A stretch of 50,617 bases of DNA from Chiloscyllium plagiosum (taxonomy: Eukaryota). Both the position numbers and the translations under genes were made by a program. Below are positions 6,331-50,099 of this stretch, one piece after another; within the stretch, counting starts at the first letter, position 1; each line of letters starts with the position of its first letter. The notes under the pieces were generated by a model. That model searched no databases. It had not been told where the DNA came from and saw nothing but the letters and a program-made list of their open reading frames with translations. Location: positions 3,294,692 to 3,345,308 of the forward strand of contig NC_057755.1 of the NCBI RefSeq assembly GCF_004010195.1, read 5' to 3'.

Positions 6331-6697
6331 TGGCATTGAAGAGCTTTTTTTGGTCAATAAGAAGTTTCCCAGATGGGCCTCTCCATCAGCTTGAATTCCT
6401 CTAATACAGTCCTTCAGCCTAACAGTGCACCCTAACCTTTTGCAATACCTTAATACAAACAATTCGCACTAAAACATGCCTTTCTTCCAGACATGTGATA
6501 GATCCACTGTCATTAAGCACAAAATTAAGCATCTACAGTATTCAGAATGCAATCATCAATGCCATTCTCTTGCCTTAAAACATATGTATTCGTATACCAT
6601 GCCTCTGCCTCTCAGCTTCTTTGGCCTTAATACTAGGCAGGTCACGACACCTTCTTTGACCTTAGCACTAAACAGATCTCTAACCCAAAGTGTTGGA

Positions 6698-13600: not shown

Positions 13601-14693
13601 CGGCACTGCACGCCCAGTCCAACATGTTGACTCCATGTGGCCATTCTTACCACATCGGCAGCATTCTAGGGTTGGTCCAGCACTCTGCCAAGTTTCCACT
13701 ACTTGGTACACTGAGTGTCATCAGCCGATTGGGTTGCTCCACTGAGCTGCCTTTAAATCCAGGTCACTCCTTTGTAATAGTTTCTGTCGGATGGCTTCAT
13801 GTCAGAGGCCACAAACCAAACGGTCCCACAAATCAACTTAGAAGAACTTTCCAAATTCACAACGTTCCACTAACCTCTAAACCAACCACAAGTTTGGTGA
13901 TGGATTCTCCTTTGTGCTGTACCTGTGTGTAAAAAACAGCAATGTCCTGCAATTATCAGTGGCTCGTGCGCGTAATAATTTCCGAAGATCTGGCATAGCT
14001 CTTGGAATGTCTTATCCGCAAGGTTCTCTCATTGTACCAGACTCTTTAGAATTGCAAACGTCTTGCTCCCAATAGTACTTAAAAACTGGTACCATGATGT
14101 TCTCAGCAACTATGCCTTTAATAACAAATTAAAGCGTTCTGGGTATGAAGTCCCATTTTCTGACCCTTCAAATGGTCCCATCTCCACAAACTGGTCCACC
14201 ATTTTGTTTTCATGCCACTCGGGTTTAGTAACTGTTTGCAGCCAGAGTCTCTGTACTGGATAATCTGGCATCAGCCGCTAGCTCACCGGCTGTGTTAGCA
14301 TATTGGTCCTCGCTGACTTCACTCACAGCTTGATGACTTCAGTAGTTCCTGGGTGTGTATTCTCTTCTTCAGCCGTTGGACCAACTGCTGCTGTCAGCCC
14401 CACCTCCTGAGTGAGCACTTCCTTTCCTGGCATCCACTGCGGCCCAGAGTCCTTTCGCTTCCCTCAACCGTACCTCTTTATGACTTTTCTGAAGTACAGA
14501 TTGACATCTCCTCCGGACACACGGTTCATGGGCCGAATTCCATTCTCACCACCAGTTGTAATATTGGTGCTTCCTTTGGAAGCAGGAAGATGAATGGTAA
14601 ATCTGAACAGGCCCACTTTATTGATGATGTTCACAGGTCCACAACTGGGTCACTATGTCCAGCTCTCAAACGGACAGCACCTCTAGCTACACA
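10630..14693 (-). mobile_element. Degenerate Gypsy/Ty3 LTR retrotransposon (gag-pol remnants, short 5' LTR ~14556-14693)
   Basis: Minus-strand remnants SEWAT, GSVRICYDFKVTVN, YLGDI (RT) and HQGH/ARSYFW (integrase Zn finger). TG..CA segment followed by PBS-like TGGTGGTGAG. Confidence 0.7.
11866..12195 (+). mobile_element. HE1-like V-SINE, full length, nested in Gypsy
   Basis: tRNA head, V-domain ctgtgtggagtttgcacattctccccgtgtc, CR1-like tail with aatct repeats. Confidence 0.9.
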
Positions 14694-15326
14694 CATAACA
14701 ATCACCTTACACTACTGTACCCTGGATTATTAACGCAGTAAAATAACCCTACACTACTGCACCCTGGATTATTAACGCAGTAACATAACCCTACACTACT
14801 GCACCCTGGATTAATAACCCAGTAATATAACCCTACACTACTGCACCCTGGATTATTAACCCAGTAAAATAACCCTACACTACTGCACCCTGGATTATTA
14901 ACGCAGTAACATAACCCTACACTACTGCACCCTGGATTATTAACCCAGTAATATAACACTACACTACTGCACCCTGGATTATTAACGCAGTAACATAACC
15001 CTACACTACTGCACCCTGGATTAATAACCCAGTAAAATAACCCTACACTACTGCACCCTGGATTATTAACGCAGTAAAATAACCCTACACTACTGCACCC
15101 TGGATTATTAACCCAGTAACATAACCCCACACTGCTGTACCCTGGGTTATTAACCCAGTAACATAACCCCAGACTGCTGTCTCCTGGGTTATTAACCCAG
15201 TAACATAACCCCAGACTGCTGTCCCCTGGGTTATTAACCCAGTAACATAACCCTACACTGCTGTCCCCTGGGTTATTAATCCAGTAACATAACCCCACAC
15301 TGCTGTACCCTGGATTATTAATCCAG

Positions 15327-16322
15327 TGTTGGAGAATTGTCCAATTATGAATAAAGCTTGTACCCAGACCTTAGGATCGATGTACACTGGTTTATTTCAC
15401 GATATTGTGGGAAGAGAAATTGACCGCATGCATACAGAATGGTCACTCAGCCTCTTCCCAGAAGCACAGGCGCAGAGTTTTCTTTTAGATTAGATTAGAT
15501 TCCCTACAGTGTGGAAACAGGCCCTTCGGCCCACAAGTCCACACCGACCTTCTAAAGAGTAACTCATCAAGACCCATTTCCCTCTGACTAATGCACCTAA
15601 CACAATGGGGCAATTTAGCATGGCAAATTCACCTGGCCTGCACATCTTTAGACTGGGGGAGGAAACCGGAGCACCCGGAGGAAACCCACGCAGATATGGG
15701 TAAAAAGTGCAAACTCCACACAGACAATTGCCCAAGGCAGGAATTGAACCTGGGACCCTGGTGCTTTGAGGCAGCAATGCTAATCACTGAGCCACCGTGC
15801 TGCCCCTGTATCTCCATTTTTAATCGGGCTACAAGAGACCAATGTTAATTGCAAGATGATACAGTTTTGATTACAGTTGACAGTTTGACATTATTGAAAC
15901 GGGCAAAACAATGGCGTGGGTCGGTCAGTTAAACAATGGCAACAGGATGTTAGCTAATCTAAAGCCACTGACAAAGTAATCGGGAGTATCCTGTCCACAA
16001 TAGTCCTATGGGGCTGTGGGCATCCATATTGAGTATCTTGGTGACATCTAGTCTGCCGGGGGCATAGTGTTGGCTGGATCTGGGGAGGCAGAGACTGTCT
16101 TCGGGGCTTCTGGAGGTGCAGTGTCATTATGAGTTAGGGAATCCCATTAGCAGGTTGTTTAGATAACATGGTCCTCCGATGAGCTAATGGCTCGTTTACT
16201 GTTAGTTTGTAGCTAATTTGAGGCATCAATGGCATTGTGGGTAGGCCCTCTTTTAGCTAGGGACACACATGGTTTCTGTAAGTAAGTGGTCTGTATGAAA
16301 AATGGTTTTCCCTTCTTCCACA
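15327..16322. mobile_element. Solo LTR (ERV- or Gypsy-like) inserted in the minisatellite
   Basis: Begins TGTTGGAG, ends TTCCACA, flanked by tccag/cccag near-TSD; the minisatellite resumes in register. Confidence 0.65.
15486..15805 (-). mobile_element. HE1-like V-SINE nested in the solo LTR
   Basis: Reverse complement of the 11866 and 18119 copies, with (ttaga)n tail. Confidence 0.9.
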
Positions 16323-17895: not shown

Positions 17896-18118
17896 ACACG
17901 ATTATTAACATAACCATACATTGCTTATCCCAGATTATTAATCCAGTAACATAATCCTACACTGCTGTACCCTGGATTATTAACCCAGTAACACAACCCT
18001 ACAGTGCTGCACCCTGGATTATTAATCCAGTAACATAACCCTACAGTGCTGCACCCTGGATTATTAATCCAGTAACATAACCCTACAGTGCTGTACCCTG
18101 GATTATTAATCCAGTAAC

Positions 18119-18450
18119 AGGCAGCATGGTGGCTCAGTGATTAGCACTGCTGCCTCACAGCGCCAGAGACCCAGGTTCAATTCCCGCCTCAGGCGACTGA
18201 CTGTGTGGAGTTTGCACGTTCTCCCCGTGTCTGCGTGGGTTTCCTCCAGGTGCTCTGGTTTCCTCCCACAATTCAAAGATGTGCAGGTCAGGTGAATTGG
18301 CCATGCTAAATTGCCCGTAGTGTTAGGTGCGTTAGTCAGGGAATGGATCTGGGTGGGTTACGTTTTGGTGGGTCAGTGTGGACCCGTTGGGCCAAAGGGC
18401 CTGTTTCCACACTGTCGGGAATCTAATCTGTAGGGAATCTAATCTAATCC
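18119..18450 (+). mobile_element. HE1-like V-SINE, full length
   Basis: Box A/B head, V-domain, gggaatctaatct tail. Confidence 0.9.
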
Positions 18451-18961: not shown

Positions 18962-19464
18962 CAGTGCAGCGCTGAGGGAGTGCCACACTGTCGGAGGGCC
19001 AGTACTGAGGGAGTGCTGCACTGTCGGAGGGTCAGTGCTGAGGGAGCGCCGCACTGTCGGAGGGTCAGTGCTGAGGGAACGCCTCACTGTCCGAGGGTCA
19101 GTGCTGAGGGAACGCCTCACTGTCGGAGGGTCAGTGCTGAGGGAGTGCCGCACTGTCGGAGTGTCAGTACTGAGGGAACGCCGCACTGTCTGAGTGTCAG
19201 TACTGAGGGAACGCCGCACTGTTGGAGGGTCAGTGCTGAGGGGGCGCCGCACTGTCGGAGGGTCCAGCGCTGAGGGAGCACCACACTGCCAGAAGGTGTT
19301 ATGACTGAGGGAACGCCGCACTGTCGGAGTGTCAGTACTGAGGGAACGCCGCACTGTCGGAGTGTCAGTACTGAGAGAACGCCGCACTGTTGGAGGGTCA
19401 GTGCTGAGGGGGCGCCGCACTGTCGGAGGGTCCAGCGCTGAGGGAGCACCACACTGCCAGAAGG
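18962..19464. repeat. 33-bp minisatellite (cagtgctgagggagcgccgcactgtcggagggt), left half
   Basis: About 15 units; continues after the LTR element at 26089. Confidence 0.93.
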
Positions 19465-20804
19465 TGTTATGAAGGTGTAGAGAGATACTATACCTTTTAA
19501 GAGAGTTGAAAGTTAGCAAGGACTTAGAGAGGCACACAGTCCTGGAAAATTTCCAATGTAACATATGGTCCAGCAGCTAGCTGTACCTGGGTTGCTCTGA
19601 GACAAAAACAAATTCAAATTTGGCCAAACAGTTTAAATTATGCCCCAAGATACTAAACTCCAATCAAGTTTGAATTTGGTATTTTTATAATATTAAAACC
19701 GATGAAATGATCCAATGCTTTGGGGTACAAATATTAAACAAATTGAACAGGTGGAGGAGAATTGCCAAGCCACTAACATATGCAGACAGCCCACAGAATA
19801 GCTCTCTTAAAAGGTAACTTTATCAATCAATAAATTGTGAAACAGAAACCCTGAGGTCAAAAGAAGATACAAAGAAGATTTGACAGTTGCTGGTTTTGAG
19901 ATTTGAACTTTTTGGTAAATCTTAATTGGGGGTTTTATCGCACCAATATTATAGAGGGAAAAGTAAAAGATAGGTTAGAGAAAGGAGTTGTAAATAGTTG
20001 TCAGTTAATTATTCTCTGTTAGACATTTAAAAGAGATTTGTTAAGTTTTAATTTAAATAGTGACCTTTGGGATAGTTCTTGGTCTCTCAAATTGTAACAG
20101 ATTACAGAACGGGTTAAATAATTTCTGTGTTGCTGGTTTAAATTAGCACGGGGATTTAATCTATGCTGTAACAATTTGGGGCTTTCATCTGAGATTTGAA
20201 CTTCGACAGGTTTGAATAGATTTGGGGATACGAAGATTTAAACACTCGCAGGGTTTCTAGTGTACTAGATGTTTAAATAAAACGTAGGTGAAACAATTTG
20301 CTTAATTTCGTGGTTGATTAAATTTAAGGTGACAGAAATGGCTCTTAAAATTGCTAAAGAAGTTCTGGGATTTGATGATCCTCAAATTTGTCAAGAAAGC
20401 TTAGAAGGAAAGAAAAAGGCCATACTTTTAGAATTAGCAAGTAAGTTAGATTTGGGTTTAACCAAGGACAAAAGTAAAGCTGAAATTGTCAGGGAGTTAC
20501 TCACTTAGGTGTGTCAGAGAAACAGACAAGTGCAGTAAAGGTAGATAAACTTAAAATGCAAGTGAGGAAAATGGAGTTAGAAGATAAACAGAGGGGGGGG
20601 GAGAGAGAGAGAGAGAGAGAGAGAGAAGGTTCTCTGCTGAGCAAAGAGAGAGAGAAGAAAGGGAGACAGAGAGAGAGAGAGAGAGAGAGAAAAGAAAGAG
20701 AGAAAGTCTTTAACCAAGCAAAAGAAAAGAGAGAACTTGAACCTGAGAAGTTGCGACTTAGTCAAAGTCAAGTTGACAGGATGGAGATTAAAAAGAGAAG
20801 GTAG

Positions 20805-21408
20805 TGTTATGGACTAGGCCAAACCATAACTTTGCAATTTGTTTCGGTAAGCGTACAGTGAATATTACCCAGAGTAAGTTAGCTAGGTTGACTGTCAGAT
20901 ATTAAAACAGGCAAAACTTTATTCACAAAATTACACAATGAAACACAAAGAACAGAATAACTAACGCCCACAGACCTCAGTCTATCCAAACTAGACTTAA
21001 TTATGCTGTTCCAAATATACACAGCAGTCCCAATAAGCAAACACCCTTAAAAACAGTAAAAATAGAACAAATGCTTACAGGTTGAAGTCAGAAGGGCAGA
21101 AGGAAAGAGTGAGTTTAGCAGCCTATTTCCACAGCTGAACTCCTAACTAGTTCTGGACTGAACTACTCAGCTATAGAGCTGTCCACTCCCCTTTCATTAT
21201 ACAGCTCACTTCTAAAACATGACCACGTTGGCCTGAAGTCTCATATTTTACATATTAGCAAAAGGCCTCTCAAAATCCTTTTTGATCTCTGTACCAAACT
21301 AGCCACCTCAGAGCCAGGAGAGTTTATGACCATTCTGAAAAAAATCAAGGGCAGAGTAACCTTGAGAACAGGAACAGCTTTTAGAAAAAGGAGACCATCT
21401 TTGTGACA
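20805..21408. mobile_element. Solo LTR of a different Gypsy family nested in gag
   Basis: TGTTAT...GTGACA with a perfect 4-bp TSD GTAG (20801-20804, 21409-21412). Confidence 0.88.
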
Positions 21409-22673
21409 GTAGCGATATATACAAATATGTCAAGACTCTGCCACATTTTGACGAGAAAGATGTTGAAGCCTTCTTTATTTCATTTGAAAAATTGGCTGGG
21501 CAGATGAAGTGGTTCAAGGATTTATGGGTAGTGCTAGTTCATACTAAACTAGTTCATACTAAATTTGCAACACTGTCAAATGAGGGGTCAAGAGATTATG
21601 AAGAGGCGATTTTGTGTGCTTATGAATTGGTACCAGAAGCATATAGACAGCGGTTCAGAAACACAAAGGAGGAACCAGGTCAGACTTCTGTTGAGTTCGA
21701 AAGAATGAAACATAGCCATTTTGATAGATGGGTACGTGCTTTTAAAAAATAGATAACACCTTTGAGGTTCTACAAGAGATTATTCTGCTGGAGGAGTTTA
21801 AAAACTCACTTCCAGAGATAGTAAGAATTCACGTGGAGGAACAGAAAGTTCAGGAAGTGAGCAGGTTAGCAGATTAATACATTTTGGTGCATAAGACAAG
21901 CTTCCAGCCAGAATTTTGTCCTGTGAGGGATAGAAGTTGAGAGAAAGGGAGATCCTATACTACTAAATCAAGAATAGACAGCTCCAGTTAAGAATTTACC
22001 ACAGCATTAAAAAAGAAGCCCAAGAGGGTGGAAAGGGGGTGAAAAGCCTCAGGTGTTTTCACTGTAATGGAGATGGACACAAAATGACAGTGCCGGTGAT
22101 TTCAGCAGCACACTGGGAAAAGGTGTTTTCACTGCCAGCAAGTGGAACACGTAAAGGCACAGCGCTGGTTGTTAAAGAAAGGCACTGTGGGAAACAATGT
22201 GGTAAACAAAGCTAAGCCAGTGGCATTAGTGAAGATAGTAACAGACACCACATGAAGAGCCGAGGAGCTGCACAGTCTAGGCAGGAGCTGGGTATGGAAT
22301 TAGTACCTGACCACTACAAAGAATTTGCCTCTGTGGGTAAAGTCTACTCAGAAAGAACAGGGGGAGAAGGAAAAGAAGTTAAAATTTTGAGAGTTACAGG
22401 ATCTAACCAGCCACTGTGTGCTAACTCAAGACTGGGCAAGTTACAGTGGGAGTGATTGACACAGTGTCAGTTCCAGGAATTCAGTTTGTTCTTGGGAATG
22501 ATTTGGCAGGATCCAAGGTGGGAGTGGTAGCCCTTGTTGTGGAGAAGCTCAAGGAAGACCAAGAAACTGAGGGGCTAAAATAGAAATATCCTATTTTCCC
22601 AGACCGTGTAGTAACCAGATCCCACTATCATAAGTCACAGCATGAAGCGAAAAATAATGACAAAGGTGAAGGA

Positions 22674-23024
22674 ATCACAGAATCCCTACAGTGTGGAAAC
22701 AGGCCCTTCGGCCCAAAACGTTCACACCCTCTGAAGAGTAACCCACCCAGACTCATTCCCCTACCGTATTACTTTACGTTTACCCCTAACTAATGTACCT
22801 AACCTACACATCCCTGAACACAATGGACAATTTAGCATGGCCAATTCACCTAACCTGCACATCTTTGGACCGTGGGAGGAAACTGGAACACCCAGAGGAA
22901 ACCCACGCAGACATGGGGAGAATGTTTCAATCTCCACACAGAGTTGCCTGAGACTGGAATTGAACCCAGGTTCCGAGCGCCATGAGGCAACAGTACTAAC
23001 CACTGGGCCATTGTTCTGCCCCAT
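22674..23024 (-). mobile_element. HE1-like V-SINE nested in pol
   Basis: Reverse-complement SINE head, V-domain and tail; aagga on both flanks. Confidence 0.88.
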
Positions 23025-23935
23025 AAGGAGTTGAGGTTCAGTTAGCAGACACACTGTTTGATGTAATGGTGCAGGAAAAACCTGAACAGGCAGAGGATCA
23101 GATAGAAGGGTTTAGTCCTGAAAGGTTAAGGGACTTGCAACGAGACAAGATGATAAAGATATATATAATATACACACGGACGCGTACTCCGAAAAGGAGG
23201 CAGAATATTCCAGAGGGCTATTAATTGAAAAATAAAATTCGAAGACAGAAATGGAGACCATGGCAGGTTAGTGCAGAGGAGAAATGAGCCAAAGTGCACC
23301 AGATTGCATTGCCGGTAGCATACAGACAGGAGGTATTGTGGGGTAGTACATGAACTACCTGTAGGTGGTCACCTAGGGGTACAAAAGACTCAGGCTAAGG
23401 TACAAAAACATTTTTATTGGTCTGTAATGCACAATGATGTGGTTAACTTTTGCTGTGTGTGTCATACATGCCAAATGGTAGGTAAACCACAGGCAGTAAT
23501 AAAACCAGCAGCTTTGTTGCCAATTCCCACATTTGAAGAACCTTTCACACAGGTTATAATTAATTGTGTAGGCCCCCTCCTGAGAACTAGGAGAGAGAAA
23601 GGACTGGAGAAACAGGTATTAGTTACTGCTCCACAGAATGAGGAATCAAATCCAGATGAGGTGGATTTTGATGAGCCTCAAAATAGATTAAAAAATGAAG
23701 TCCTCGAGGAGTGGGATAGGTTAGGAAACTATGTGCGTCATGAGCATAGATCGCAGTTGAAGTTGTTACTGCTTTATAAGGGCATATGTAAGAATCAGTT
23801 GGGGAGGACTAATACTATTGTACATGAAGTAGACATCGGCAATATTGCTCCGATAAAACAACACCTCTATCCTTTCAAAGCCAGACAGGTCCAGAAGGAA
23901 GTGGAGGCTATCATCGAGGACAAGGATATCATCGA

Positions 23936-24122
23936 GTCGAGAGTGTGGTGCTGGAAAAGCACAGCAGGTCAGCTTGCATTGGAGGAGTAGGAGAATCAAC
24001 ATTTCAGGCATAAGCCCTTCATCACATTCTCCTACTTCTCAGATGCTGCCTGATCGGCTGTGCTTTTCCTGCACCACACTCTCGACTCTGACCTCCAGCA
24101 TCTGCAGTCCTCACTTTTTCCC
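23936..24122. mobile_element. Penelope-like palindromic fragment nested in RT
   Basis: Inverted arms; flanking 15-bp duplication caagga(t/c)atcatcga. Confidence 0.8.
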
Positions 24123-26088
24123 CAAGGACATCATCGAACCAAGCCAGAGGGAGTGGAGTTCGCCAATTGTCTCAGTTCCCAAACTGGATAGGACGCTACG
24201 ATTCTGTGTGGATTATCGGAAGGTCAACACCGTTACAAAATCGGACTCATATCCAATTCCTAGACTGGGGGACTGTATTGAGAAAGTTGGACAAGCTAGT
24301 TACAACACCAGGTTGAACTTAATGCGTGGTTACTAGCAAGTACTTTTATCAGAGACAGAGAAAGAAATGTCTGCGTTTGTCAGTTTAAAGTGATGCCCTT
24401 TGGAATGAAGAACGTACATGCCACATTCTAAAGACTCAGGAACAGAGTTGTGGCTGCATTAACAAACTGTGCAGTCTATTTGGACAACATAGTAATCTTT
24501 AGTAAGTCCTGGAAAGATCACACGGTACAGTTGACAGAGCTCTTTGAATGACGAGAAGGAAAACTGATATTAAACTTAAACAAAACTGAATTCGCAAAAG
24601 CAGAGACATTCTTGGGACATAATGTTGGTCCTGGAAGATTGTCCCCACGGAATGCAAAGACGAAAGCCATCGAGGAATTTCCACAACCATTGAAGAAAGA
24701 GGTGCTTCTATTCTTAGGACTCAGCGGATTCTATCGGAAGTTTGTTCCAAACCTCAGCAGTGTAATGGCACTGTTAACCGATTTGCTGAAGAACAACACA
24801 AAGTTTTGGTGGACAGAACAACACCAGGAGACATTCAACCATTTGAAAGCCATATTAACCACCAAACCAGTTTTAGCTAAACCAAACTGTTCAAAACCTT
24901 TTAAAGTCATCATCAAGGCTAGTGACATTGGAGTTGGAGCTGCACTGCTCCAGGAAGATGAGGATGGGATTGAACTGCCAGTTGGTTACTTTTCAAAGAT
25001 ACACCAGAGGAAATACTCCACGATTGGAAAAGAACTGAGTTGGCACTGGACTTACAACAACAATTTGTCAGAGAAAGTTGTGCACAATCCTTTCAAATTC
25101 TTAGAACACTTTAAAGACAAGAATATGAGACTATTTCATTGGAACCTTACGTTACAGACTTTTAATTTTAAAATTATACATGTTGCGGGTCAGAAGAATG
25201 TAATCGCAGACGTGTAGTCGCAGATTTTCACTGATAACGTTTAGATGAGATTTGTATTTATCCAATGTTTCATATATATTGGAAGAGGTTAAAGTGAACC
25301 TAGATTAATGTTATTTGTATATTATGATAATGTGTTTAAAGAATAGAAAACAAAATGAAGCCATCTTTTTATTATGATGGTTCATTTTGTCTTAAGGAGG
25401 GAGGTGTTATAAAGGTGGAAGGGGTACTCTTTTAAGAGAGTTGAAAGCTAGCAAGGACTTAGGCACACAAATTACTGGAACGTTTACAATGTAACATATG
25501 GTCCAGTAGATGGCTGTGAGACAAAAACAAATTCAAATTTGGACAATCAGTTTAAATTATGCCCCAGGATACTAAACTCCAATCAAGTTTGAATTTGGTA
25601 TTCTGACAATATTAAAACCAATGAAACAATCCAATGCTTTGGGGTATAAATATTAAACAAATTGAACAGTTGGAGGACAACTGCCAAGCCACCAACATAT
25701 GCCTGCAAAATAGCTCTCTTAAAGGTACCTTTATCTATCAATGACCTGTGAAACAGAAACGCTAGGAAGACAATGAAGAAGATACAAAGAGAAGATCTGA
25801 TAGCTGGCTGGTTTTGAAATTTGAATTTTTTGGTAAATATTAATCGGGGTTTTATCGGACCAGTATTATAGAAGGGAAAGTAAAAGATAGGTTAGAGAAA
25901 GGAGTTGTAAATAATTATTAGTTATTCTCTGTTAAACTTTTAAAAAACAAGTTGTTAAGTTTTAATTTAATTAGTGACCTTTGACACAGTTCTTGGCCTC
26001 TCAAATTGTAACAGATTACAGAATGGGTTAAATAATTTCTGTGTTGCTGGTTTAAATTAGCAGGGGGGATTTACTCTGTGTCGTAACA

Positions 26089-26385
26089 GAGGGTCAGTAC
26101 TAAGAGAGTGTCACACTGTCGGAGGGCCAGTGCTGAGGGAGCGTCGCATTGTCGGAGGGTCAGTGGTGAGGGAGGGCCGCACTGTCGGAGGGTCAGTGCT
26201 GAGGGAGGGCCGCACTGTCGGAGGGTCAGTACTGAGGGAGTGCCGCATTGTCGGAGGGTCAGTGCAGAGGGAGCACCACATTGTCGGAGCATCAGTGCTG
26301 AGGGAGCGCCGCACTGTCGGAGGGTCAGTGCTGAGGGAGCGCCGCACTGTCGGAGCGTCAGTGCTGAGGGAGTGTCACACTATCA
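26089..26385. repeat. 33-bp minisatellite, right half
   Basis: About 9 units of the same family as 18962-19464. Confidence 0.92.
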
Positions 26386-32320: not shown

Positions 32321-32434
32321 CATAACTCCTGACCACCAAGGGGTGGCAATCTTGACGGCAGGCGAGTAGGGCACCGTGATAGCCAGGACAATTCCTCCCA
32401 GTACCTGGACCACGCCCAGAAGGACCTGCATCAC
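32321..32434 (-). CDS. MS4A: MS4A-family exon, TM1 to start of TM2 (VMQVLLGVVQVLGGIVLAITVPYSPAVKIATPWWSGVM)
   Basis: Acceptor ttttcttctccttgcAG, 114 bp, phase 0-0, donor GTTTGT. QxxxGxxxxxxG helix and PWWSG match the MS4A P(F/W)WGG motif. Confidence 0.88.
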
Positions 32435-35499: not shown

Positions 35500-36922
35500 C
35501 CCACCCTCAGTACTGACTCTCCCACAGCGCCAGCCTAAAACAGCGCAGTACTCCCTCAGCACTGACCCTCCGACAGTGCGGCCCTCCCTCAGCGCTGACC
35601 CTCCGACAGTGCGGCCCTCCCGTCCGACAGCGCGGCGCTCCCTCAGCGCTGACCGTCCGACAGCGCGGCGCTCCCTCAGCGCTGACCGTCCGACAGCGCG
35701 GCGCTCCCTCAGCGCTGACCGTCCGACAGCGCGGCGCTCCCTCAGCGCTGACCGTCCGACAGCGCGGCGCTCCCTCAGCGCTGACCGTCCGACAGCGCGG
35801 CGCTCCCTCAGCGCTGACCGTCCGACAGCGCGGCGCTCCCTCAGCGCTGACCGTCCGACAGCGCGGCGCTCCCTCAGCGCTGACCGTCCGACAGCGCGGC
35901 GCTCCCTCAGCGCTGACCGTCCGACAGCGCGGCGCTCCCTCAGCGCTGACCGTCCGACAGCGCGGCGCTCCCTCAGCGCTGACCGTCCGACAGCGCGGCG
36001 CTCCCTCAGCGCTGACCGTCCGACAGCGCGGCGCTCCCTCAGCGCTGACCGTCCGACAGCGCGGCGCTCCCTCAGCGCTGACCGTCCGACAGCGCGGCGC
36101 TCCCTCAGCGCTGACCGTCCGACAGCGCGGCGCTCCCTCAGCGCTGACCGTCCGACAGCGCGGCGCTCCCTCAGCGCTGACCGTCCGACAGCGCGGCGCT
36201 CCCTCAGCGCTGACCGTCCGACAGCGCGGCGCTCCCTCAGCGCTGACCGTCCGACAGCGCGGCGCTCCCTCAGCGCTGACCGTCCGACAGCGCGGCGCTC
36301 CCTCAGCGCTGACCGTCCGACAGCGCGGCGCTCCCTCAGCGCTGACCGTCCGACAGCGCGGCGCTCCCTCAGCGCTGACCGTCCGACAGCGCGGCGCTCC
36401 CTCAGCGCTGACCGTCCGACAGCGCGGCGCTCCCTCAGCGCTGACCGTCCGACAGCGCGGCGCTCCCTCAGCGCTGACCGTCCGACAGCGCGGCGCTCCC
36501 TCAGCGCTGACCGTCCGACAGCGCGGCGCTCCCTCAGCGCTGACCGTCCGACAGCGCGGCGCTCCCTCAGCGCTGACCGTCCGACAGCGCGGCGCTCCCT
36601 CAGCGCTGACCGTCCGACAGCGCGGCGCTCCCTCAGCGCTGACCGTCCGACAGCGCGGCGCTCCCTCAGCGCTGACCGTCCGACAGCGCGGCGCTCCCTC
36701 AGCGCTGACCGTCCGACAGCGCGGCGCTCCCTCAGCGCTGACCGTCCGACAGCGCGGCGCTCCCTCAGCGCTGACCGTCCGACAGCGCGGCGCTCCCTCA
36801 GCGCTGACCGTCCGACAGCGCGGCGTTTCCTCAGCGCTGACCCTCCGACAGCGCGGCGTTCCCTCAGCGGTGACCCCCCGACAGTGCGGCGCTCCCTCAG
36901 CGCTGACCCTCCGACAGTGTGG
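35500..36922. repeat. Highly homogeneous 33-bp CpG-rich minisatellite (ccctcagcgctgaccgtccgacagcgcggcgct)
   Basis: About 36 identical central units with diverged edge units; same family as 18962 and 26089 in reverse orientation. Confidence 0.97.
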
Positions 36923-37032: not shown

Positions 37033-37128
37033 ACCTAAAAACTTCACGTGTCCCTGGAGACATCCACCGTCTGCGGCGCAGCCTTTCAGAAACGTGCAGC
37101 ATCCGGGTGTTTTATCCGTGGTTGCCAT
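37033..37128 (-). CDS. MS4A: MS4A/CD20-family membrane-spanning protein, first coding exon (MATTDKTPGCCTFLKGCAADGGCLQGHVKFLG)
   Basis: Polypyrimidine tract then CAGCAG acceptor, strong Kozak AGA-ATG-G at 37128, 32 open codons ending KFLG, phase-0 donor GTAAGG. An xKxLG|xxQ junction is typical of MS4A genes. Family-level call only. Confidence 0.8.
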
Positions 37129-37299
37129 TCTGCTGCAACAGAGAGAAAGAGGTATTTGCTCAGCTGTTTATACAAGCAGGAGCCCGCAATCTTTACAACT
37201 GAAGCAAGACCCTTAACCAATTTTGAGCATGCCTAGAAAATGATCCCCACAGCTGTCTGCCAAAGACACTCAACTCTCAGGGAGAAGAAACACCTCTTC

Positions 37300-39765: not shown

Positions 39766-39940
39766 ATGGTGATACATCTGGAGGAGGAGGAGGAGGAGGA
39801 GGAGGAGGAGGAGATGTCGAGTAAAAAGCCCTTACCGATCACAAAAACGTCAGAGGTGGTAATCAGAGAGGAGACAGGACCTCAGTCACGAGCTGACAGT
39901 TGCAAACCATTCCTGAAACACAAAGGCAAAGCTCAGCAAG
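39766..39940 (+). other. Possible plus-strand exon containing a (GAG)n run (MSSKKPLPITKTSEVVIREETGPQSRADSCKPFLKHKGKAQQ)
   Basis: Open frame after about 11 GAG units, donor-like CAAG|GTCGGT. Its phase (1) does not join the downstream exons identified. Confidence 0.25.
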
Positions 39941-40165: not shown

Positions 40166-40885
40166 AATTAAACATTCACAAGCCAGAGTGAAAAAAAAAT
40201 TCTCATCAGTCCAAAATGGTCACTGCAAGATCCTCCACAATCTATCATCCAATGCTACAATATAAAAAAATTTGAAATCAGCATCCCTGACTTTATGACC
40301 AAATCTCTTAACAATATAATCTACTCCAACCATACAAATCTCTCCATCCCTAAACTCCTTCAGTACCTAAAACCCTCCCCATCTGNNNNNNNNNNNNNNN
40401 NNNNNNNNNNNNNNNNNNNNNNNNNNNNNNNNNNNNNNNNNNNNNNNNNNNNNNNNNNNNNNNNNNNNNNNNNNNNNNNNNNNNNNNNNNNNNNNNNNNN
40501 NNNNNNNNNNNNNNNNNNNNNNNNNNNNNNNNNNNNNNNNNNNNNNNNNNNNNNNNNNNNNNNNNNNNNNNNNNNNNNNNNNNNNNNNNNNNNNNNNNNN
40601 NNNNNNNNNNNNNNNNNNNNNNNNNNNNNNNNNNNNNNNNNNNNNNNNNNNNNNNNNNNNNNNNNNNNNNNNNNNNNNNNNNNNNNNNNNNNNNNNNNNN
40701 NNNNNNNNNNNNNNNNNNNNNNNNNNNNNNNNNNNNNNNNNNNNNNNNNNNNNNNNNNNNNNNNNNNNNNNNNNNNNNNNNNNNNNNNNNNNNNNNNNNN
40801 NNNNNNNNNNNNNNNNNNNNNNNNNNNNNNNNNNNNNNNNNNNNNNNNNNNNNNNNNNNNNNNNNNNNNNNNNNNNNNNNNNNNN

Positions 40886-43800
40886 CCTACCTGAGGGAGA
40901 GAGAGAGGCCTACCTGAGGGAGAGAGAGGGACCTACCTGAGGGAGAGAGAGGGACCTACCTGAGGGAGACCTACCTGAGGGAGAGAGAGAGAGGGACCTA
41001 CCTGAGGGAGAGAGAGAAGGACCTACCTGAGCGAGAGAGAGAGGGTCCTACCTGAGGGAGAGAGAGAGGGACCTACCTGACGGAGAGAGGGACCTACCTG
41101 AGGGAGAGAGAGGGACCTACCTGAGGGAGAGAGAGACTTACCTGAGGGAGAGAGAGGGACCTGCCTGAGGGAGAGAGAGGGACCTACCTGAGGGGGGCCT
41201 ACCTGAGGGAGAGAGGGACCTACCTGAGGGAGAGAGAGACCTACCTGAGGGAGAGAGAGAGGGACCTACCTGAGGGGGACCTACCTGAGGGAGAGAGGGA
41301 ACTACCTGAGGGAGAGAGGGACCTACCTGAGGGAGAGGGTGACCTACCTGAGGGGGAGAGAGAGACCTACCTGAGGGAGAGAGAGAGGGACCTACCTGAG
41401 GGGGACCTAACTGAGGGAGAGAGGGACCTACCTGAGGGAGAGAGAGAGGGACCTACCTGAGAGAGAGAGGGACCTACCTGAGGGGGAGAGAGACTCACCT
41501 GAGGGAGAGAGAGGGACCTACCTGAGGGAGAGAGAGGGACCTACCTGAGGCAGAGAGAGACTCACCTGAGGGAGAGAGAGGGACCTACCTGAGGGAGAGG
41601 GGGACCTACCTGAGGGGGCCCTACCTGAGGGGAGAGCGACCTACCTGAGGGAGAGAGAGACTCACCTGAGGGTGAGAGAGGGACCTACCTGAGGGAGAGA
41701 GAGAGGGACCTACCTGAGGGGGAGAGCGACCTACCTGAGGGGGAGAGAGAGACTCACCTGAGGGAGAGAGAGGGACCTACCTGAGGGAGAGAGGGACCTA
41801 GCTGAGGGGGAGAGCGACCTACCTGAGGGAGGGGGAGAGCGACCTACCTGAGGGAGAGAGAGAGACTCACCTGAGGGAGAGAGAGGGACCTACCTGAGGG
41901 AGAGAGAGAGACTCATCTGAGGGAGAGAGAGGGACCTACCTGAGGGAGAGAGTGGGACTCACCTGAGGGAGAGAGGGACCTACCTGAGGGAGAGAGGGAC
42001 CTACCTGAAGGAGAGAGAGAGGAACCTACCTGAGGGAGAGAGAGAGGGACCTACCTGAGGGAGAGAGAGGGACCTACCTGAGGGAGAGAGTGGGACTCAC
42101 CTGAGGGAGAGAGGGACCTACCTGAGGGAGAGAGGGACCTACCTGAAGGAGAGAGAGAGGAACCTACCTGAGGGAGAGAGAGAGGGACCTACCTGAGGGA
42201 GAGAGAGGGACCTACCTGAGGGAGAGAGTGGGACTCACCTGAGGGAGAGAGGGACCTACCTGAGGGAGAGAGGGACCTACCTGAAGGAGAGAGAGAGGAA
42301 CCTACCTGAGGGAGATAGGGACCTACCTGAGGGAGAGAGGGACCTACCTGAGGGGGACCTACCTGAGGGAGAGAGGGACCTATCTGAGGGGGACCTACCT
42401 GAGGGAGAGAGAGGGACCTACCTGAGGGAGAGAGAGGGACCTACCTGAGGGAGAGAGGGACTTATCTGAGAGGGACCTACCTGAGGGAGAGAGAGATACT
42501 TACCTGAGGGAGAGAGGGACCTACCTGAGGGAGAGAGAGAGAGAGACTTACCTGAGGGAGAGAGGGGCTTACCTGAGGGAGAGAGAGGGACTTACCTGAG
42601 GGAGAGAGCGGGACTTACCTGAGGGAGAGAGGGGCTTACCTGAGGGGACCTACCTTAGGGGGACCTACCTGAGGGAGGGAGAGAGAGAGAGAGGGACTTA
42701 CCTGAGGGAGAGAGAGAGGGACCTATCTGAGAGGGACATACCTGAGAGGGACTTACCTGAGGGAGAGAGGGATTTACCTGAGGGAGAGAGAGAGAGAGAC
42801 TTATCTGATAGGAACTTACCCGAGGGGGAGAGAGGGACTTACCTGAGGGAGAGAGGGACTTACCTGAGGGAGAGAGAGAGACTTACTTTCCTGAGGGAGA
42901 GAGAGGGACTTACCTGAGGGAGAGAGAGGGACTTACCTGAGGGAGAGAGGGACTTACTTGAAAGAGACTTCCCTGAGGGAGAGAGGGACTTACCTGAGGG
43001 AGAGAGAGAGACTCACTTGAGGGTGGGAGATTTACCTGAGGGAGAGAGACTTACCTTTGGGAGGGGGACCTAGCCGTGGGAGACAGATCCCCTGAAGGAG
43101 AGAGATTAACCTGAGGGAGAGAGACTTGCCCGTGGGAGGGAGATTTACCTAAAGGAGAGGGATTTACCTGAGGGAAAGGAAGATTTATCTGAAGGAGGAA
43201 GATTTACCTGAAGGAGAGATTTATTTGAAAGGGATTTACTGTGGGGCAAGGGAGTGATTTACTTGAGAGGGAGAGAGTGGATTGTGATTTACCTATTGGA
43301 GGGATAGGGGATGATTTACCTGACATAGGGTCAGGAAGTTTTACCTGAGAGAAAGAGAAGGGAGATATTTTTACCTGAGAGACAGGGATAGATTTGCCTG
43401 ATAGGGACAGGGAGTTTTACTTGAAAGTGAGGGAATCATTTACATGCGAAAGAGGGACAGGGAGTTTTGAGAGAGAGTGGGAGAGATTAACCTGAAAGAC
43501 CTGAGTGAGGATCTTTTATCCGAGAGAGTGAGATTGTCCAGAGAGAGGGTGAAGGGCTTTTGCCTGAAAGAGAGATTTATCTGAGACAGGGAGATTTACC
43601 TGATAAAGAAATTGACTAACTGGAGAGAGATTTTCTGAGGGGAGGGTGTGATTCACCTGCAAGAGAAGCATTGATTGATCTGTGATAGAGAGAGGGAGCA
43701 ATTTATCTATGAGAGAGGGTGTGATTTAACTGAAAAAGATAAGGCAAAATTTATCTGAGAGAGAGAGAGAGATTGTATAATTTATCTGCAAGAGGAAGTA

Positions 43801-46720
43801 GGATTGCCTGAGAGAGAGGTACTTACCTAAACAGGAGGGATTACCTTTGTAGGAGCGCCAGCGAGATTTGCGTCAGAGAAGAATTATCTGTCAGATTGGA
43901 AGAAAAAGCGATTACCCGAGGGGTGTAGGGGGGACAGATATACATTTACCTTTGAAGAGAGGAATCGAGATTTACTTGAGGAAACAGGATATAGACGTTT
44001 ACTTGAGAGCGGGAAGAGTCAGAGATTTACCTGAGAGAGGGTGAGGAAAGGTCATGGAGATTTAGCTGAGAAAGAGGGGATGGTTATACATATTTGACTG
44101 AGAGGAGAAACAACTTAAAAATTTACCTGAGAGAGATAGATGGAGGTAGTTATTTACCAGAAGGAGGGAGAGAGATAGATAGGAATATACCAGAGAGGGA
44201 GGTAGGAAGATAGGGATTTACATGAGATACGGATTCATTGAGAGTGAAGAAAAGCATTTGCATGTGAGAGAGGGATTACCTGAGACAGGACGAGGACGGG
44301 AGGAAGATTACCTGAGAAAGGAATAGGTAGTGAAATAGAGATTGACCTAAAATAAGGGTTACCTGAGGAAGGGAGAGAGGAGGAGAAAGAGGAAAGTTAT
44401 CTGAGAAGGAGGAGGATTACCTGAGACACAGGCAGAAAGGGATTACCTGGGATAGAGGGAGAAGGGCAAAGGCAGCAACAGAGGTAGGGAAAGACCTTGG
44501 CTGAGAGATTGAGGAAGAGAGAGATATCACCAGAGAGGGACACATCATCTGATAGGTCTCTTTGCTCCTCACTATCATCCATAAAAGTGGAAAGCACAGA
44601 GCAATATCACCTGACAGCAAGGAGAAGAGATTGATATCACTTGGGAGTGTGAAGCAGGAGGAGCTATCACCTGAGAGCAAAGAATTGACAGATACATTCA
44701 ATTGATAGTGGAGGAAATAGATGTCAAAGGACCATAGAATTACATCAACTAATAGAATTACATCATCTAATAGCGAACTAGGGGAAGGAAGAGGAAAGGT
44801 ATCACCCACAAGAAGAAAGGTATAATCTGAGACAACAAGAAGGAAAAGGAGAATCAACTGATAGAGATAAGAAAGACCATCTGAGAGAGAGGAGAGACAT
44901 TACCTGAGGAGAACACGGGAGCCAGCACCTGACACACTTAAAAGTAAATCACTTCTTGGAGAGAGAGTGTTACCAGTGACTTGGAATCAGTGGTACCAAT
45001 ACCTGAGGGAGAGAAAGAGCACAGTGCCATCACCTAAGGAATAAATACAGGTAATTCCTTTCTACCTGAAGTGCCACAACCTGAGAAAGACTGTGGTACC
45101 TAGAAGAAGGTGGAATACCTACCCAAGATGGAATAGGCTGCACCAGAGAGCAAGTGAAACACAAAGTGATGCCAACACCTGAAATACATTCAATACAGAG
45201 ATACTTTTACCAGAGAAAAACAGAAGTCAGCATCAGAGAGAGAAACAGTAGTGCCAATATCTGAGACACAGAGGTGCCAATCAACACCTGAATGAGAGAC
45301 GGGATAAAACATAAGCGAGACATAACAAACTTTGATACCAATATCTAAAAGAGATAGAGGAGATCACCTCTGAGAGAGAGAATACTAGATGAAGAAAGTA
45401 GATCAATGGTGACAATAGCTGAGAGTGGAGAAAACACCCATGAGAGGGAAAATACAGTTCAGGAAATATACTTCTGAAGGGGATATTGAACTTGAGAGTG
45501 AAATATACCTGGGACACAAAAACATCCTGGAGCAGAGCTTACGACTAAGGAACACGACAGCATTCAAGGGAGAGGAACGAACATTTGTGAGAGAGGTGAC
45601 GATATCTGCACCCAGAAACACCAGCTGAGATAGAAGGAGAAAGTTGAACTCTTGAGTGGATCTGTCATGTGGGACTGGAGCAAAGACTTGAGAGAGAACT
45701 GAAACAGGTGACAGAGAGAGAAAGTAAGCACTTGGGCAGATATTATAGTGCCTGAGAGACTGAGGAATAACATCTAAGACTGGAACATATCTGTGTAACA
45801 GAGCCTCCAGCATCCCAGACAAAGAGAGTAGAGCATCTCCAGGACGGAAGACACTACAGAGAGAGGACATCTCACTGAAAAGTTGAGGTAGAGGATCAAA
45901 CAGCTAAGACAAAGAAGACACACCAGCTGACAGTGGAGCATTCACAGACACAAGCACAAAACCTGCTACTATGTCTGAGAGGAGGCCATAGAATACCAAT
46001 GAGAACAGCACACAAGCTTTTAGAGGACAAAATAAAGTAAGGCAAAAGTAGTTTACACTATTTCCACCTGATACAATTGTGCACATGTAATAGAGGAACA
46101 CACAGCAGTTGTGGGAGGAGAGTGAGTAATTGAGAGTAGGGGGAAATACATTTGAGAGAAGAGTATATAACTGAAAAGCAAAACAATACAGCAACGGAGA
46201 GAGGTAGGAAACTCCATACGAGGAAACAGCAATTTTAAAAGATTTGAGAATCCATGAAAGGAAAATGTAGCAGAGAAAGCTATAGATAATACCTGAGAAG
46301 TGTATGCACACGTGAAAGAATACTTGAGAGGCAACACATATCTAAAGGAGTGACATCTACATAAGAACATGGTAAATGCTGAGGGAGGGATATAAACCTG
46401 AGAGTGATATAGACCCAAGCAGAAATATATACTGTTTGAAAGTGATACTGCCTGAAGGACTGATATATGCCCGAGTGTGTGATTTACAACTGAAGGGGGG
46501 ATATCCATTTGAAGCCATAACAGATACCTGAAAGAGTAATATATTCATCTGAGAAAGCCAGATATACTAGAGAGGCATCTGAGAAGCACATATTCCTCCA
46601 CAATAGTGATATACACCTGACAGAGTGATATACAACATCTCAAGCTGATATACAACTCATGGAACAGTGATATAACACTAAAGGTGACATATAACACTTG
46701 ACTAAGTGATATACAACATT
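40886..46720. repeat. ~6 kb purine-rich tandem array, core gacYYACCTGAG(GA)n, degenerating rightwards
   Basis: Roughly 100 clear 15-27 bp units up to ~43100, then increasingly diverged ACCTGA-cored units; 138-bp higher-order repeat at 41952, 42090 and 42228. Confidence 0.9.
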
Positions 46721-46790
46721 TGAAAACTAATTATATAGCAGCTGAGAAAGGAGAAGATCCAAGAGAGAGAGTGAATATACCCAAGATAAG

Positions 46791-46840
46791 ATGATGGACC
46801 AAAAGGAGGACATCAGTGATCAAGAAGATTCAAGCTCTGA
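46791..46840 (+). CDS. Putative first coding exon of an unidentified plus-strand gene (MMDQKEDISDQEDSSS)
   Basis: ATG with upstream in-frame TGA at 46743; donor GA|GTAAGT is phase 2, matching the next exon. Confidence 0.55.
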
Positions 46841-47110
46841 GTAAGTGGTAATTGGGCAAGTCAAACATTTCAAGTATACCAATGCCATTCAGTGTGTGAT
46901 GTGTTACCAATATTAATAAGCAAGATGTTGCATGTTCTGCAAGATGATGTATAAAAGTCTTGTTGAGCTTGTACTTTCAAGTGAGGTTATCTTGAGCAAA
47001 CTGTTATTTTCTGTTAAAGCACAATTCTGTGAAGATTAACTTCATTTAGATGCAGCATAGGAAAGTTTATTTTTAAACTTGTGGCCTTTTCTTTTAAAAT
47101 AATTTTACAG

Positions 47111-47246
47111 TGTGGAGGATCCAACTGCAGGCAACTGGACCCATGACACTCCACCACAAACCACAGAGAGTGCTGGGACAATGCAAAGCCTTAATGCTGA
47201 CCCTGCAGTGCCACCTTCACCCAAGCCACAGCATCTAACATTCAAT
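47111..47246 (+). CDS. Putative exon of plus-strand gene (D-VEDPTAGNWTHDTPPQTTESAGTMQSLNADPAVPPSPKPQHLTFN)
   Basis: Acceptor ttttacAG, donor AAT|GTAAGT, 136 bp, open in phase 2 to 0. Confidence 0.65.
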
Positions 47247-47639
47247 GTAAGTATATGAAATAAGACAGAAATTATGTCCTTTAACCTGCAGATGGATTGT
47301 TGAACCTTGCTGCATGATCGCACAGCATTAGGCATCTTCTCACTAATCCTTCTTCCAACTCATACATCCCTCCGCCCCATGTCAGCCCCCTGCCTTGCTC
47401 ATTCTCTGTATGTTAGCGATGATGATGTAATATCCTTAACTCCCATCAAATCCTACTTACCCATGTTTGCTATCCTCCATTGGCTTCTGGTCCAGCATTT
47501 TAAAAAGCTCATTCTTTTCTTAAAATTCTTTCATCATCATACCCATCCCTCTCTCTGTAACTCCAGCCCTGTAATACTTCAAAATCTGCACTGTCCTTCA
47601 ATTCTATGATAATCCTGTTCCCATCATTGGCACTTATAT

Positions 47640-48270
47640 ATTCAAGGAGAGATAAGCTAGAGGAGGGTGGGGGTGGGGAGAAAGTAGCATAGAGTAAGCA
47701 AATGTGGCTGTGGTAGCGAGTTTGTTTCACGACATGGTTGAAGAGCTTCAGGGCAGAGGAAATGACCTGGGAGTTGCAGTGAGAGAGGGACTCCCTGAGA
47801 TTCTTGTAGAGAGAGGAGGAAAACTTCTTCAAGGCAGGTATCCTTGCAAGAGGATTCGCAGTAGGGTTAAAATCAACGAGGTAAAAACAATGCCTGCAGA
47901 TGCTGGAAACCAGATTCTGGATTAGTGGTGCTGGAAGAGCACAGCAGTTCAGGCAGCATCCAAGGTGCAGCGCAATCGACGTTTCGGGCAAAAGCCCTTT
48001 ATCAGGAATAAAGGCAGTGAGTCTAAAACGTGGAGAGATAAGCTAGAGGAGGGTGGGGGTGGGGAGAAAGTAGCATAGAGTAAGCAGGGTGCACGACGTG
48101 GTTGAAGAGCTTCAGGGCAGAGGAAATGACCTGGGAGTTGCAGTGAGAGAGAGACTCCCTGAGATTCTTATTTTACTGCTCCTTGAATGCTGCCTGAGCT
48201 GCTGTGCTCTTCCAGCACCACTGATCCAGAATCTGGTTTCCAGCATCTGCAGTCATTGTTTTTACCTCAC
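47640..48270. mobile_element. Rearranged Penelope-like element end with direct and inverted terminal copies
   Basis: Segments ~47646-47700 and ~47730-47806 repeated at ~48032-48168; arm 47879-47960 inverted at 48190-48266. Confidence 0.8.
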
Positions 48271-48764
48271 TTATATATTCAACTCTCTTGATCCTAGGCA
48301 TAGAGTTTCCTGTTTCAAACCTCTTCCTCTCACTCTGTGTCTCCTTTATGAAAGCTCTGTTTGATCAAACTTTATTTTTTTTTATGTGACATGGTGATTC
48401 CTTGTTTCACCTGGGATGTTTTACCACGTTATTGCTGCTTGTTACTTTTTTACTTGTATGGCTGGTGCCCACAGAGCATGCCCTGAAATTTGTCCAACTT
48501 GGATGCTCTATGGAGTAAACAGCAAGCCGAAGTTAACAGGTATCTGCTCTAATCTTCATGTTGAGAATTCTTGACTTTTAGTTCGTTTACAGCGGGTGCT
48601 ATGACAGAAAGCTGCATATTAATGAGGTGAGATCTGCAGTTAATAAGGTAGTTAGCAAGGAATAATTCCCTATAACTCACTGCTGCCGACCGAGAATGAT
48701 GTCTCAATGCCTGGAACTTAGTTAAAAGATGCAATGTGTTGTTCTATGTCAAGGTAGGTCTCGC

Positions 48765-49470
48765 TGGACTTACCTTGTGGTTTGGTCACATTTCTGACCC
48801 CAGCAAGATTTTGCTCAACATCTTGAATAAAGTGAAATGTCTCAAGGCAGTTCATAATATCCGGTATCTAAAACAAAATTGAACAATGAGCTACATAATG
48901 AGTTCTTAGGATGAGTGACCAAAAGGTCAGTCGAAGGGCGAAGTTTTAAGGAAGAGAGTGAGTTGGAGAGTTTTATAGAGAGAATTCCAGACTGAGGGGT
49001 CCAGGTGCTGAAGGCATGGCCACCAATGGGGAAGCCATTATAATTGGGCAATGCTAAAGAGGCCTGAATTGGAGGAGCAGAGAGATCACGGAGAGTTGTA
49101 GGAGATTACAAGGATAAGGGGAGTTGTATGCGCTGGAGGAGGTTAGAGAATGGGGGAGGATTGTTAGGACTGAAGGTGGTTACTTGGTTGGAAGGTTTGA
49201 TGTTAATCAGAGAGACAAAGAGGTCTGTAATAACAGTAGGTGGTTGTATAGACAGGGAAAATTGAAGGATCTGGAGGATAGGGAGGAATCTAGGAGCTGA
49301 AAGAGGTTATTGAGTAAGGGTTGGGAATAGAGGAGGTTACAGGGATAATAAACTGAGGTGAGGCCACGGTGAGCTTTGAACTCAAATATGGAGAATTTTA
49401 AAATAGAGCTAGTTGTCAGTTCAGGAGGCATGACTTATTGTAAATTAGAAAACTGGGCAGTAAGTTTCTG
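48765..49470 (-). mobile_element. Old L2-like LINE 3' fragment
   Basis: IGGHAFS...P-type C-terminal remnant and degenerate tail; similar plus-strand remnants flank 47640-48270. Confidence 0.45.
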
Positions 49471-49729
49471 GATTCTATCATCTTTACTGTGTTCAGTTCC
49501 CTTGCTTGCATGTCCACCTTTTGCTCAAAACTCAGTCCACAATTTTTCCCTCTGCAATTTATAAGAAAAAATTAAAAGAAAGCTCTCCAGAAAGTGCACA
49601 CTGCTCATGCATCTCATCCGTCACATTCACTGTTTGTGAAATTACCATTTCAGAGATTTCTAGGAACACAACCCCTGAAAACACAGGATTATACAGCATT
49701 TTAAAAATGGAATCTCTTCTGTCTTCTAG

Positions 49730-49858
49730 CCAGTTGTTCAGGAACGCCAGGTGCAATTGGAGATGGAAACAGCAGCACCAGAACCAGTGGCAATACCAAC
49801 TCCTCATTTCACCAGGATTGCACCAAGTATACCACAGCAAAATCCAAAGCAGCTAACA
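49730..49858 (+). CDS. Putative exon of plus-strand gene (PVVQERQVQLEMETAAPEPVAIPTPHFTRIAPSIPQQNPKQLT), possibly the N-terminal tail of a second MS4A paralog
   Basis: Acceptor tctcttctgtcttctAG, donor ACA|GTAAGA, 129 bp, phase 0-0. The PKQLT| ending resembles MS4A PKxLG|. Confidence 0.62.
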
Positions 49859-50099
49859 GTAAGATTTCTCTACCATTTATACATGTAAACTGTTAGTGAC
49901 ATAATTTGTAAATATACCTGTTTATTCCTTTCTCACGCTTTTAGTGATGATTTAACTTAACCCAGCTTGTATGCTATTCTCTCCATTTACCAGCAATGTC
50001 TGGTATTTTTGCATTTTTTGAGTTTAATGCTTTATTTTATTCATTCCTTTTAATAAGTGTGTCACTGACAAATCCTGGTTTGTGTTGCCAATCCTAATT

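Follow-up and report, generated by a model that had tools for sequence, protein, structure and literature searches.

Splice-site-like units in a tandem array

We analysed 50,617 nucleotides of the Chiloscyllium plagiosum genome (NC_057755.1, here C46, positions 3,294,692-3,345,308; referred to as the window, in whose coordinates all array positions are given) with respect to a tandem array between two head-to-head MS4A-like genes. On the minus strand its units resemble an acceptor fused directly to a donor. With a probability of roughly 0.7, we consider this array a neutral minisatellite restricted to a single locus, which has grown at one side and whose splice-site look is an unselected by-product without splicing function. 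A sequence-only reading of the window had put forward a sponge, telescripting or recursive-splicing role and had kept a chance satellite motif as its fallback; it is the fallback that the conservation tests reported below favour.

A script-based parse of the minus strand resolved 100 units at 40,886-43,065, which agrees with the roughly 100 sites previously estimated. Their splice-like cores (the slash marks the junction-like position) were CAG/GTAGGT in 55 units, CAG/GTAAGT in 12, CAG/GTGAGT in 8, CAG/GTAAAT in 2 and other sequences in 23. The proposed fused unit was confirmed, with YAG/GTRRGT present in 75 and AG/GT kept in 87 of the 100 units, as were the polypyrimidine spacers, which are nearly pure (20 purines in 1,250 bases). 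GTAAGT and GTGAGT are indeed common variants; GTAAAT, listed with them before, is rare in this young block and occurs in 6 further units at 43,065-44,460. Unit periods in the young block range from 14 to 33 nt and are mainly 21, 23, 25 and 15 nt, and the units stand head to tail at one locus, as in a minisatellite or variable number tandem repeat (VNTR). At its left end the array enters a 500-N assembly gap (40,386-40,885, seen in the sequence itself), and the count of 100 units refers to its assembled young part. This gap probably hides further array, and possibly also the unplaced contig C77555, which carries an array end and a CpG island.

The array also extends further to the right than the limit of 44,450 assigned to it earlier. 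The pentamer CAGGT occurs 16 times at 44,450-46,800, compared to 2.8 +/- 1.6 times in 200 dinucleotide shuffles (maximum 8), and decayed copies can be followed out to about 46,780. The right flank of the array is not enriched (5 compared to 2.9 in shuffles), and the left flank is borderline (9 compared to 4.0 +/- 2.0, maximum 9). Contigs from a DNA sequencing run matched 43,250-43,678 with 2 and 43,853-46,258 with 5 differing letters, supporting the assembly of the decayed part. One of these contigs contains a 21-nt insertion at 45,080, which suggests a unit-sized polymorphism.

Unit parsing divided the minus strand into successive blocks. The youngest and most homogeneous one (40,886-42,490) is built from (C/T)n-CAG/GTAGGT units, comprising 53 GTAGGT, 8 GTGAGT and 1 GTAAGT hexamers; a higher-order block of 138 nt is present in it three times. 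It is followed by 11 units of a CAG/GTAAGT-dominated block (42,490-43,065) and by a decayed stretch (43,065-44,460) whose units carry GTAAAT and GTAATC and in which CAG/GTRRGT no longer occurs. The oldest, heavily decayed tail (44,460-46,780), delimited by CAGGT enrichment and unit comparison, holds GTGATA- and GTATAT-type units. Read from the old end toward the gap, the hexamer behind TCAG thus changes in ordered blocks from GTATAT/GTGATA over GTAATC, GTAAAT and GTAAGT to GTAGGT, while adjacent units become more alike, their identity increasing from 0.44-0.57 to 0.85-0.93. Polar minisatellites are characterised by such ordered blocks of variants and by homogeneity at one end, and we infer that the homogeneous gap-side end is the growing end and that decay follows behind growth. 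Unit copies are not independent, because the 100 units comprise only 59 distinct types and the 138-nt block is repeated, with an exact run of 261 nt.

Polarity of this kind is known from the minisatellite MS32. Directional growth of a VNTR has been described for WDR7 (PMC8327921). Polar repeats share with the shark array ordered variant blocks, block duplications, one homogeneous end and, probably, length polymorphism. They differ from it in that the shark gradient extends over about 6 kb, until units are hardly recognisable. Most likely the array is a further splice-like minisatellite in a genome already rich in them, and it clearly records repeat growth from one side. Its units of 15-27 nt consist of a CT run joined to a TCAGGT core and have likely multiplied by slippage and unequal exchange at one side.

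Mutation pattern of the splice-like letters

Variation that stays within the donor consensus had been taken as a sign of constraint. At the invariant positions -2, -1, +1 and +2, transversions were found in 4 of 400 cells (1.0%), and purine changes in the spacers in 17 of 1,250 (1.4%), or 20 if one 3-base AAG duplication is included. Invariant positions thus mutate at the spacer rate, which does not support the constraint. G+1 is departed from in 7 of the 100 units, compared to 1, 1 and 2 departures at positions -7, -4 and -3. The change G+1>A accounts for 5 units, 4 of which represent a single 15-nt donor-killing variant that spread. Both common variants are explained by plain A/G transitions (+3 and +4). 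With 9 of 14 core positions tolerating transitions, simple arithmetic gives a chance of about 0.4 that both successful variants fall on such positions.

Concordantly, G+1 was kept in 16 of 25 units of the decayed block (43,060-44,460) anchored on YYYCAG, as compared to 22 of 25 for A+3 and 24 of 25 for A+4; with positions +2 to +7 as anchor, G-1 and G+1 were each kept in 15 of 20 units. G+1 is the least preserved base of the older units. Decay from G/C to A/T is an established mutational pattern. The loss of G+1 and G-1 in older units reads as such decay and not as constraint. In this within-array test AG/GT is not additionally conserved, and the splice look is not detectably selected; the excess conservation of splice positions that the sequence-only reading had asked to be checked was not detected.

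A U1 snRNA 5'-end mimic had been proposed as a second feature of the units. The exact motif ATACTTACCTG, the reverse complement of the consensus donor, was indeed found on the plus strand at 42,496-42,506. A motif count located it only this once, and it results from one C>A substitution at position +7 in a single unit. The prevailing plus-strand core is ACCTACCTG (55 occurrences), and not ACTTACCTG (12 occurrences) as had been assumed. Complementarity of the U1 5' end to donors, of which this is the one exact 11-mer, arises automatically in a donor-like unit. The mimic is simply the donor read backwards and adds no evidence of its own, a point worth keeping in mind for U1 mimics.

Juxtaposition of YAG/GT behind a pyrimidine tract is also the architecture of recursive splice sites, and recursive-splicing sites are said in a review to have been described by Sibley in 2015. 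That review (PMC5126111) presents recursive (ratchet) sites as isolated, conserved above the surrounding intron and demonstrated by junction reads and saw-tooth coverage. Shark units share with them the acceptor and donor placed side by side. They are unlike them in numbering about 100 at distances of 15-27 nt, and within the array their splice bases are not conserved above their surroundings.

We consider it improbable that the array functions as a recursive-splicing ladder or a U1/U2AF sink in a minus-strand transcript, possibly acting as a length-tunable brake on MS4A expression. The 75 units with YAG/GTRRGT behind pyrimidine tracts and an architecture that is nearly unique in the genome speak for such a role, and retention of RNAs on chromatin by U1 motifs has been reported (10.1101/310433), which would be relevant here only for a transcribed minus strand. 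The branch-point motifs CTRAY and YNYTRAY were absent from the young block; a weak branch point could be provided by the A in CTCAG of the preceding unit, 21-25 nt ahead of the next AG. Opposed to a functional role are this absence of consensus branch motifs, the lack of excess conservation of the invariant bases, the spread of donor-dead variants and the donor-less units of C77555. Moreover, known recursive sites are single and conserved and split long introns (PMC5126111), and sites spaced at 15-27 nt would shorten nothing. Equally doubtful is the related proposal of a repeat-built rheostat of splicing, in which a long minus-strand transcript, either of MS4A or of a divergent non-coding RNA, would contain the array in sense orientation, as a dense U1/U2AF-loading ladder of variable length that tunes splicing, chromatin retention or read-through. 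If the spliceosome did use the array, the locus would be a natural experiment on the processing of about 100 acceptors fused to donors and on repeat length as a regulator of gene output.

A coding repeat was rejected for either strand. It remains to consider a decayed coding repeat (DLPEGER-like) on the purine-rich plus strand, once an N-terminal extension of the plus-strand MS4A protein, which we regard as highly improbable. Acidic repeats do occur in one plus frame, and the tail runs into the acidic first coding exon of the plus gene with no strong acceptor between. Against this, only 51 of 99 periods are divisible by three, each plus frame contains 111-131 stops at 40,886-46,900, and the C. 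punctatum RefSeq ortholog begins at the same Met. A longer relative was absent from a set of 5,602 candidates (553-2,000 aa), which counts as weak evidence.

Related repeats in the genome and an unplaced array end

The 19-nt core of the units has 46 matches in the genome, 40 of them in the array; the other 6 fall within the initial 200 bases of C77555, which opens inside an array on the same strand and is the only other place with this core. A satellite scattered genome-wide, named by the sequence-only reading as an outcome that would speak against function, is thereby ruled out. A second copy of the decayed part was not present in the genome. Searching for two adjacent units (CAG/GTRRGT, gap, Y5N, CAG/GTRRGT) resulted in 61 genome matches, compared to 8 for the reversed control, and 55 of the 61 were at the array. 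One match pair on C18 proved to be a duplicated non-tandem stretch without an array, and no similar arrays were detected upstream of other MS4A paralogs within 240 kb.

Donor-like arrays as such are frequent. Three CAG/GTRRGT at gaps of 6-22 nt gave 539 genome matches compared to 183 in the reversed control, and three perfect CAG/GTRAGT gave 230 compared to 121. The first 100 of these 230 matches fall into 19 loci, not including the array studied here. Donor-bearing minisatellites are thus common in the C. plagiosum genome (at least 19 other loci). We inspected 22 donor arrays, namely these 19 perfect CAG/GTRAGT loci and three CAG/GTRRGT loci. Two lie directly behind the end of a coding exon, 5 behind the ends of short or long interspersed elements (SINE/LINE, judged by eye), and 15 show no evident exon, indicating that donor arrays have several origins, mostly unconnected with splicing.

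Several of these loci deserve description in their own right. At C19:55,855,300-55,856,100 a 32-nt minisatellite repeats, about 9 times, the terminal 23 nt of a RASSF5/Nore1-like exon (E 5.9e-08) plus its donor, a clear exon-boundary repeat of the type known from human F7. At C5:117,414,376-117,414,970, 18 perfect CAG/GTGAGT units lie about 40 nt behind a first-exon donor (GTAAAT) of a gene that we take to be C8orf82-like, and the repeat donors are nearer to the consensus than this real donor. An unrelated pyrimidine-rich array of about 120 31-nt units at C12:22,817,240-22,821,460 runs into a gap; CAG/GTGAGT occurs in only 42 of its units, next to the variants CGG/GTGAGT and TGG/GTGAGT, and a possible 15-nt microexon precedes it. 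A 16-nt array at C82806:104-3,250 has 153 GTGAGT donor-like units and contains more perfect donors than the array at the MS4A locus.

In human F7 intron 7, a 37-bp VNTR supplies extra donor sites that are functional but silent (PMC1557585), and CBS carries a 31-bp VNTR, c.1444_1467+7 (PMC2630376). The shark array is like these VNTRs in its tandem units each with a donor-like site. It is unlike them in that their first unit spans a real exon-intron boundary, whereas protein matching, which non-coding exons could escape, revealed no source exon at the old end of the shark array. Furthermore, each shark unit additionally has an AG and a pyrimidine tract, and the array may lie off the sense strand of any pre-mRNA.

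An origin of this exon-boundary kind, with the array as the duplicated end of a real minus-strand exon and its copies now silent pseudo-donors in a first intron, deserves weighing, and we regard it as unlikely. The source would be a 5' non-coding MS4A exon or an exon of a divergent non-coding RNA starting near 46,800. In favour, the array is co-oriented with the minus gene, the acceptor on that gene's ATG exon implies an upstream exon, its three RefSeq transcripts encode one protein, and two of the 22 other donor arrays do stand directly behind coding exon ends (the RASSF5/Nore1-like one and that of the gene presumed to be C8orf82-like). On the other side, the weakest donors (GTATAT, GTGATA) are found in the oldest units, the pyrimidine run ahead of CAG is unlike an exon end, and the candidate promoter on C77555 would separate the array from the gene.

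Tandem duplication of proto-splice sites AG/GY in coding exons can create a viable intron (PMC2891723). The likeness consists in a duplicated AG/GY with acceptor- and donor-like flanks, and the difference in the non-coding nature of the shark array. A literature search, with subscription journals and supplements outside its reach, returned nothing on this array or on fused acceptor/donor minisatellites in sharks. Single units of the shark array are too short for introns. A lead on lampbrush loops (PMC11602149) offered nothing relevant in the part of its text that was accessible.

Sequence similarity suggests where C77555 belongs. Its 14-mers recur at 77-135 per 250 nt in the gap-proximal block, at 35-49 in the GTAAGT block, at 8 at the edge of the latter and at 3 in the tail; outside the array it matches only common repeats. 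In 6 of its 13 complete units the donor hexamer is lacking and GTCCCT or GTATCT is found instead. Right behind the array, at C77555 229-650, lies a unique 422-nt CpG island (GC 0.64, observed/expected CpG 0.99). It contains words that we take to be E2F-like and cell-cycle genes homology region (CHR)-like motifs in mirror placement at both ends, as well as CCAAT, a cAMP response element and an NRF1-like word. No other non-repeat CpG island was found between the two MS4A-like genes, and the MS4A paralog at 108.6 kb has a CpG island upstream. Going by these sequence features, it is about as likely as not, or slightly more likely, that C77555 represents the far array end inside the gap and its island the common promoter of both head-to-head genes. 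In this way the array points to a probable missing promoter of the two genes on an unplaced contig.

If the locus is arranged in this way, the minus gene would have its start downstream of the splice-like strand, and the first intron of the plus gene would hold the array in antisense, reading the purine-rich strand. The splice-like sites would then rarely be met by the spliceosome, so that a dense array could be tolerated. Should the splice-like strand be transcribed nevertheless, its units would likely act as pseudo-sites that stay silent, like those of human F7. A role as sponge, in telescripting or in recursive splicing needs minus-strand transcription through the array in each case, and the likely position of the promoter counts against it.

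Transcription of the opposite strand bears on another proposal, namely that a plus-strand RNA blocks donors in trans through ACUUACCUG/ACCUACCUG copies acting as mimics of the U1 5' end. We give this very little credence. If the C77555 island drives the plus gene, the plus strand would be transcribed, and a candidate GGG/GTGAGT donor is present at C77555:332 on the strand that this gene would use. Against it, there are just one exact 11-mer and 12 nine-mers, the match follows automatically from a donor-like unit, and an Sm site or U1 structure was not seen, although no dedicated search was made. An excised intron would also be short-lived.

Several observations weigh against the neutral minisatellite. 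The counts of mutation events are small and thus compatible with weak selection. The TCAG/GT core outlasts about six hexamer turnovers, an argument that is partly circular since units were defined by that core. A[AT]TAAA occurs just once in 5.9 kb of U1-rich minus strand, which would suit long transcription, though low A content also yields this. The pyrimidine-spacer form is rare, as seen from the concentration of two-unit matches at this one array. Donor-like arrays are two to three times more frequent than in the reversed control, which implies that some spring from real donors. Finally, no overlap was found between C77555 and the left flank of the gap.

Flanking MS4A-like genes and further repeats

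Proteins of both genes map to exons flanking the array, and P0001 and P0004 score 58.4 and 38.7 bits against PF04103 (curated cut-off 27.9). The claimed co-orientation of the array with an MS4A gene holds, as the minus gene passes PF04103 and matches C. plagiosum RefSeq LOC122544064 exon by exon; the neighbour to which the array was said to be antisense is likewise an MS4A-like paralog. Exons encoding the first transmembrane segment of the CD20 family were found within 240 kb at -48.3 kb (plus strand), 32,434 (minus), 67.8 kb (plus) and 108.6 kb (plus) in window coordinates, outlining a cluster of at least four MS4A-like genes at about 3.246-3.404 Mb of C46.

Protein matching placed the ATG exon of the minus gene, in LOC122544064 isoform X2, at 37,033-37,132 and its first transmembrane (CD20-family) exon at 32,321-32,434. 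The ATG exon has its own acceptor, which implies a non-coding exon further upstream; other candidate acceptors of this gene are located at 39,912 and 39,030. The plus gene matches the 315-aa C. punctatum RefSeq protein (P0001) from 46,791 onwards. Its first coding exon (46,791-46,840), covering the ATG and residues 1-16 of P0001 at 100% identity, is followed by GTAAGT, and further coding exons were assigned by protein match to 47,111-47,246 and 49,730-49,858, with the transmembrane exons outside the window at about +67.8 kb. Four exons of this gene encode a long N-terminus rich in proline, and a weak acceptor candidate for its first intron is found at 46,607.

Four sequencing data sets were listed for 43,250-47,480, none of them recorded as RNA. 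In a poly-A single-cell RNA sample, of which about 2% of the run was read, reads at 43,250-50,050 fell almost exclusively on a SINE-like stretch at 47,560-48,470. The same sample yielded no reads on the plus-gene exons at 47,111 and 49,730; the plus gene is thus not seen expressed in it, and the sample is uninformative on transcription of the array. Of two other runs compared with this interval, one gave no reads and the other small pieces only.

The window contains further repeats. A GC-rich 33-nt minisatellite (35,551-36,917; 39 copies, 99% identity) occupies the intron behind the ATG exon of the minus gene, with relatives at 18,967-19,456, at 26,089-26,372 and where C77555 ends. A CpG island at 5,800-6,400, on the downstream side of the minus gene, includes a 40-nt repeat with a CHR-like word and AAAATGGCG, which we presume to be YY1-like. 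A 42-nt minisatellite is present in introns of the minus gene at 14,696-15,327 and 17,906-18,119. Also within an intron of this gene, a broken stretch resembling a long terminal repeat (LTR) retrotransposon extends over 20,200-25,300 on the plus strand, in which gag-, reverse transcriptase-, RNase H- and integrase-like pieces were recognised by eye, and a second, decayed LTR-retrotransposon-like stretch lies on the minus strand at about 11,000-14,300.

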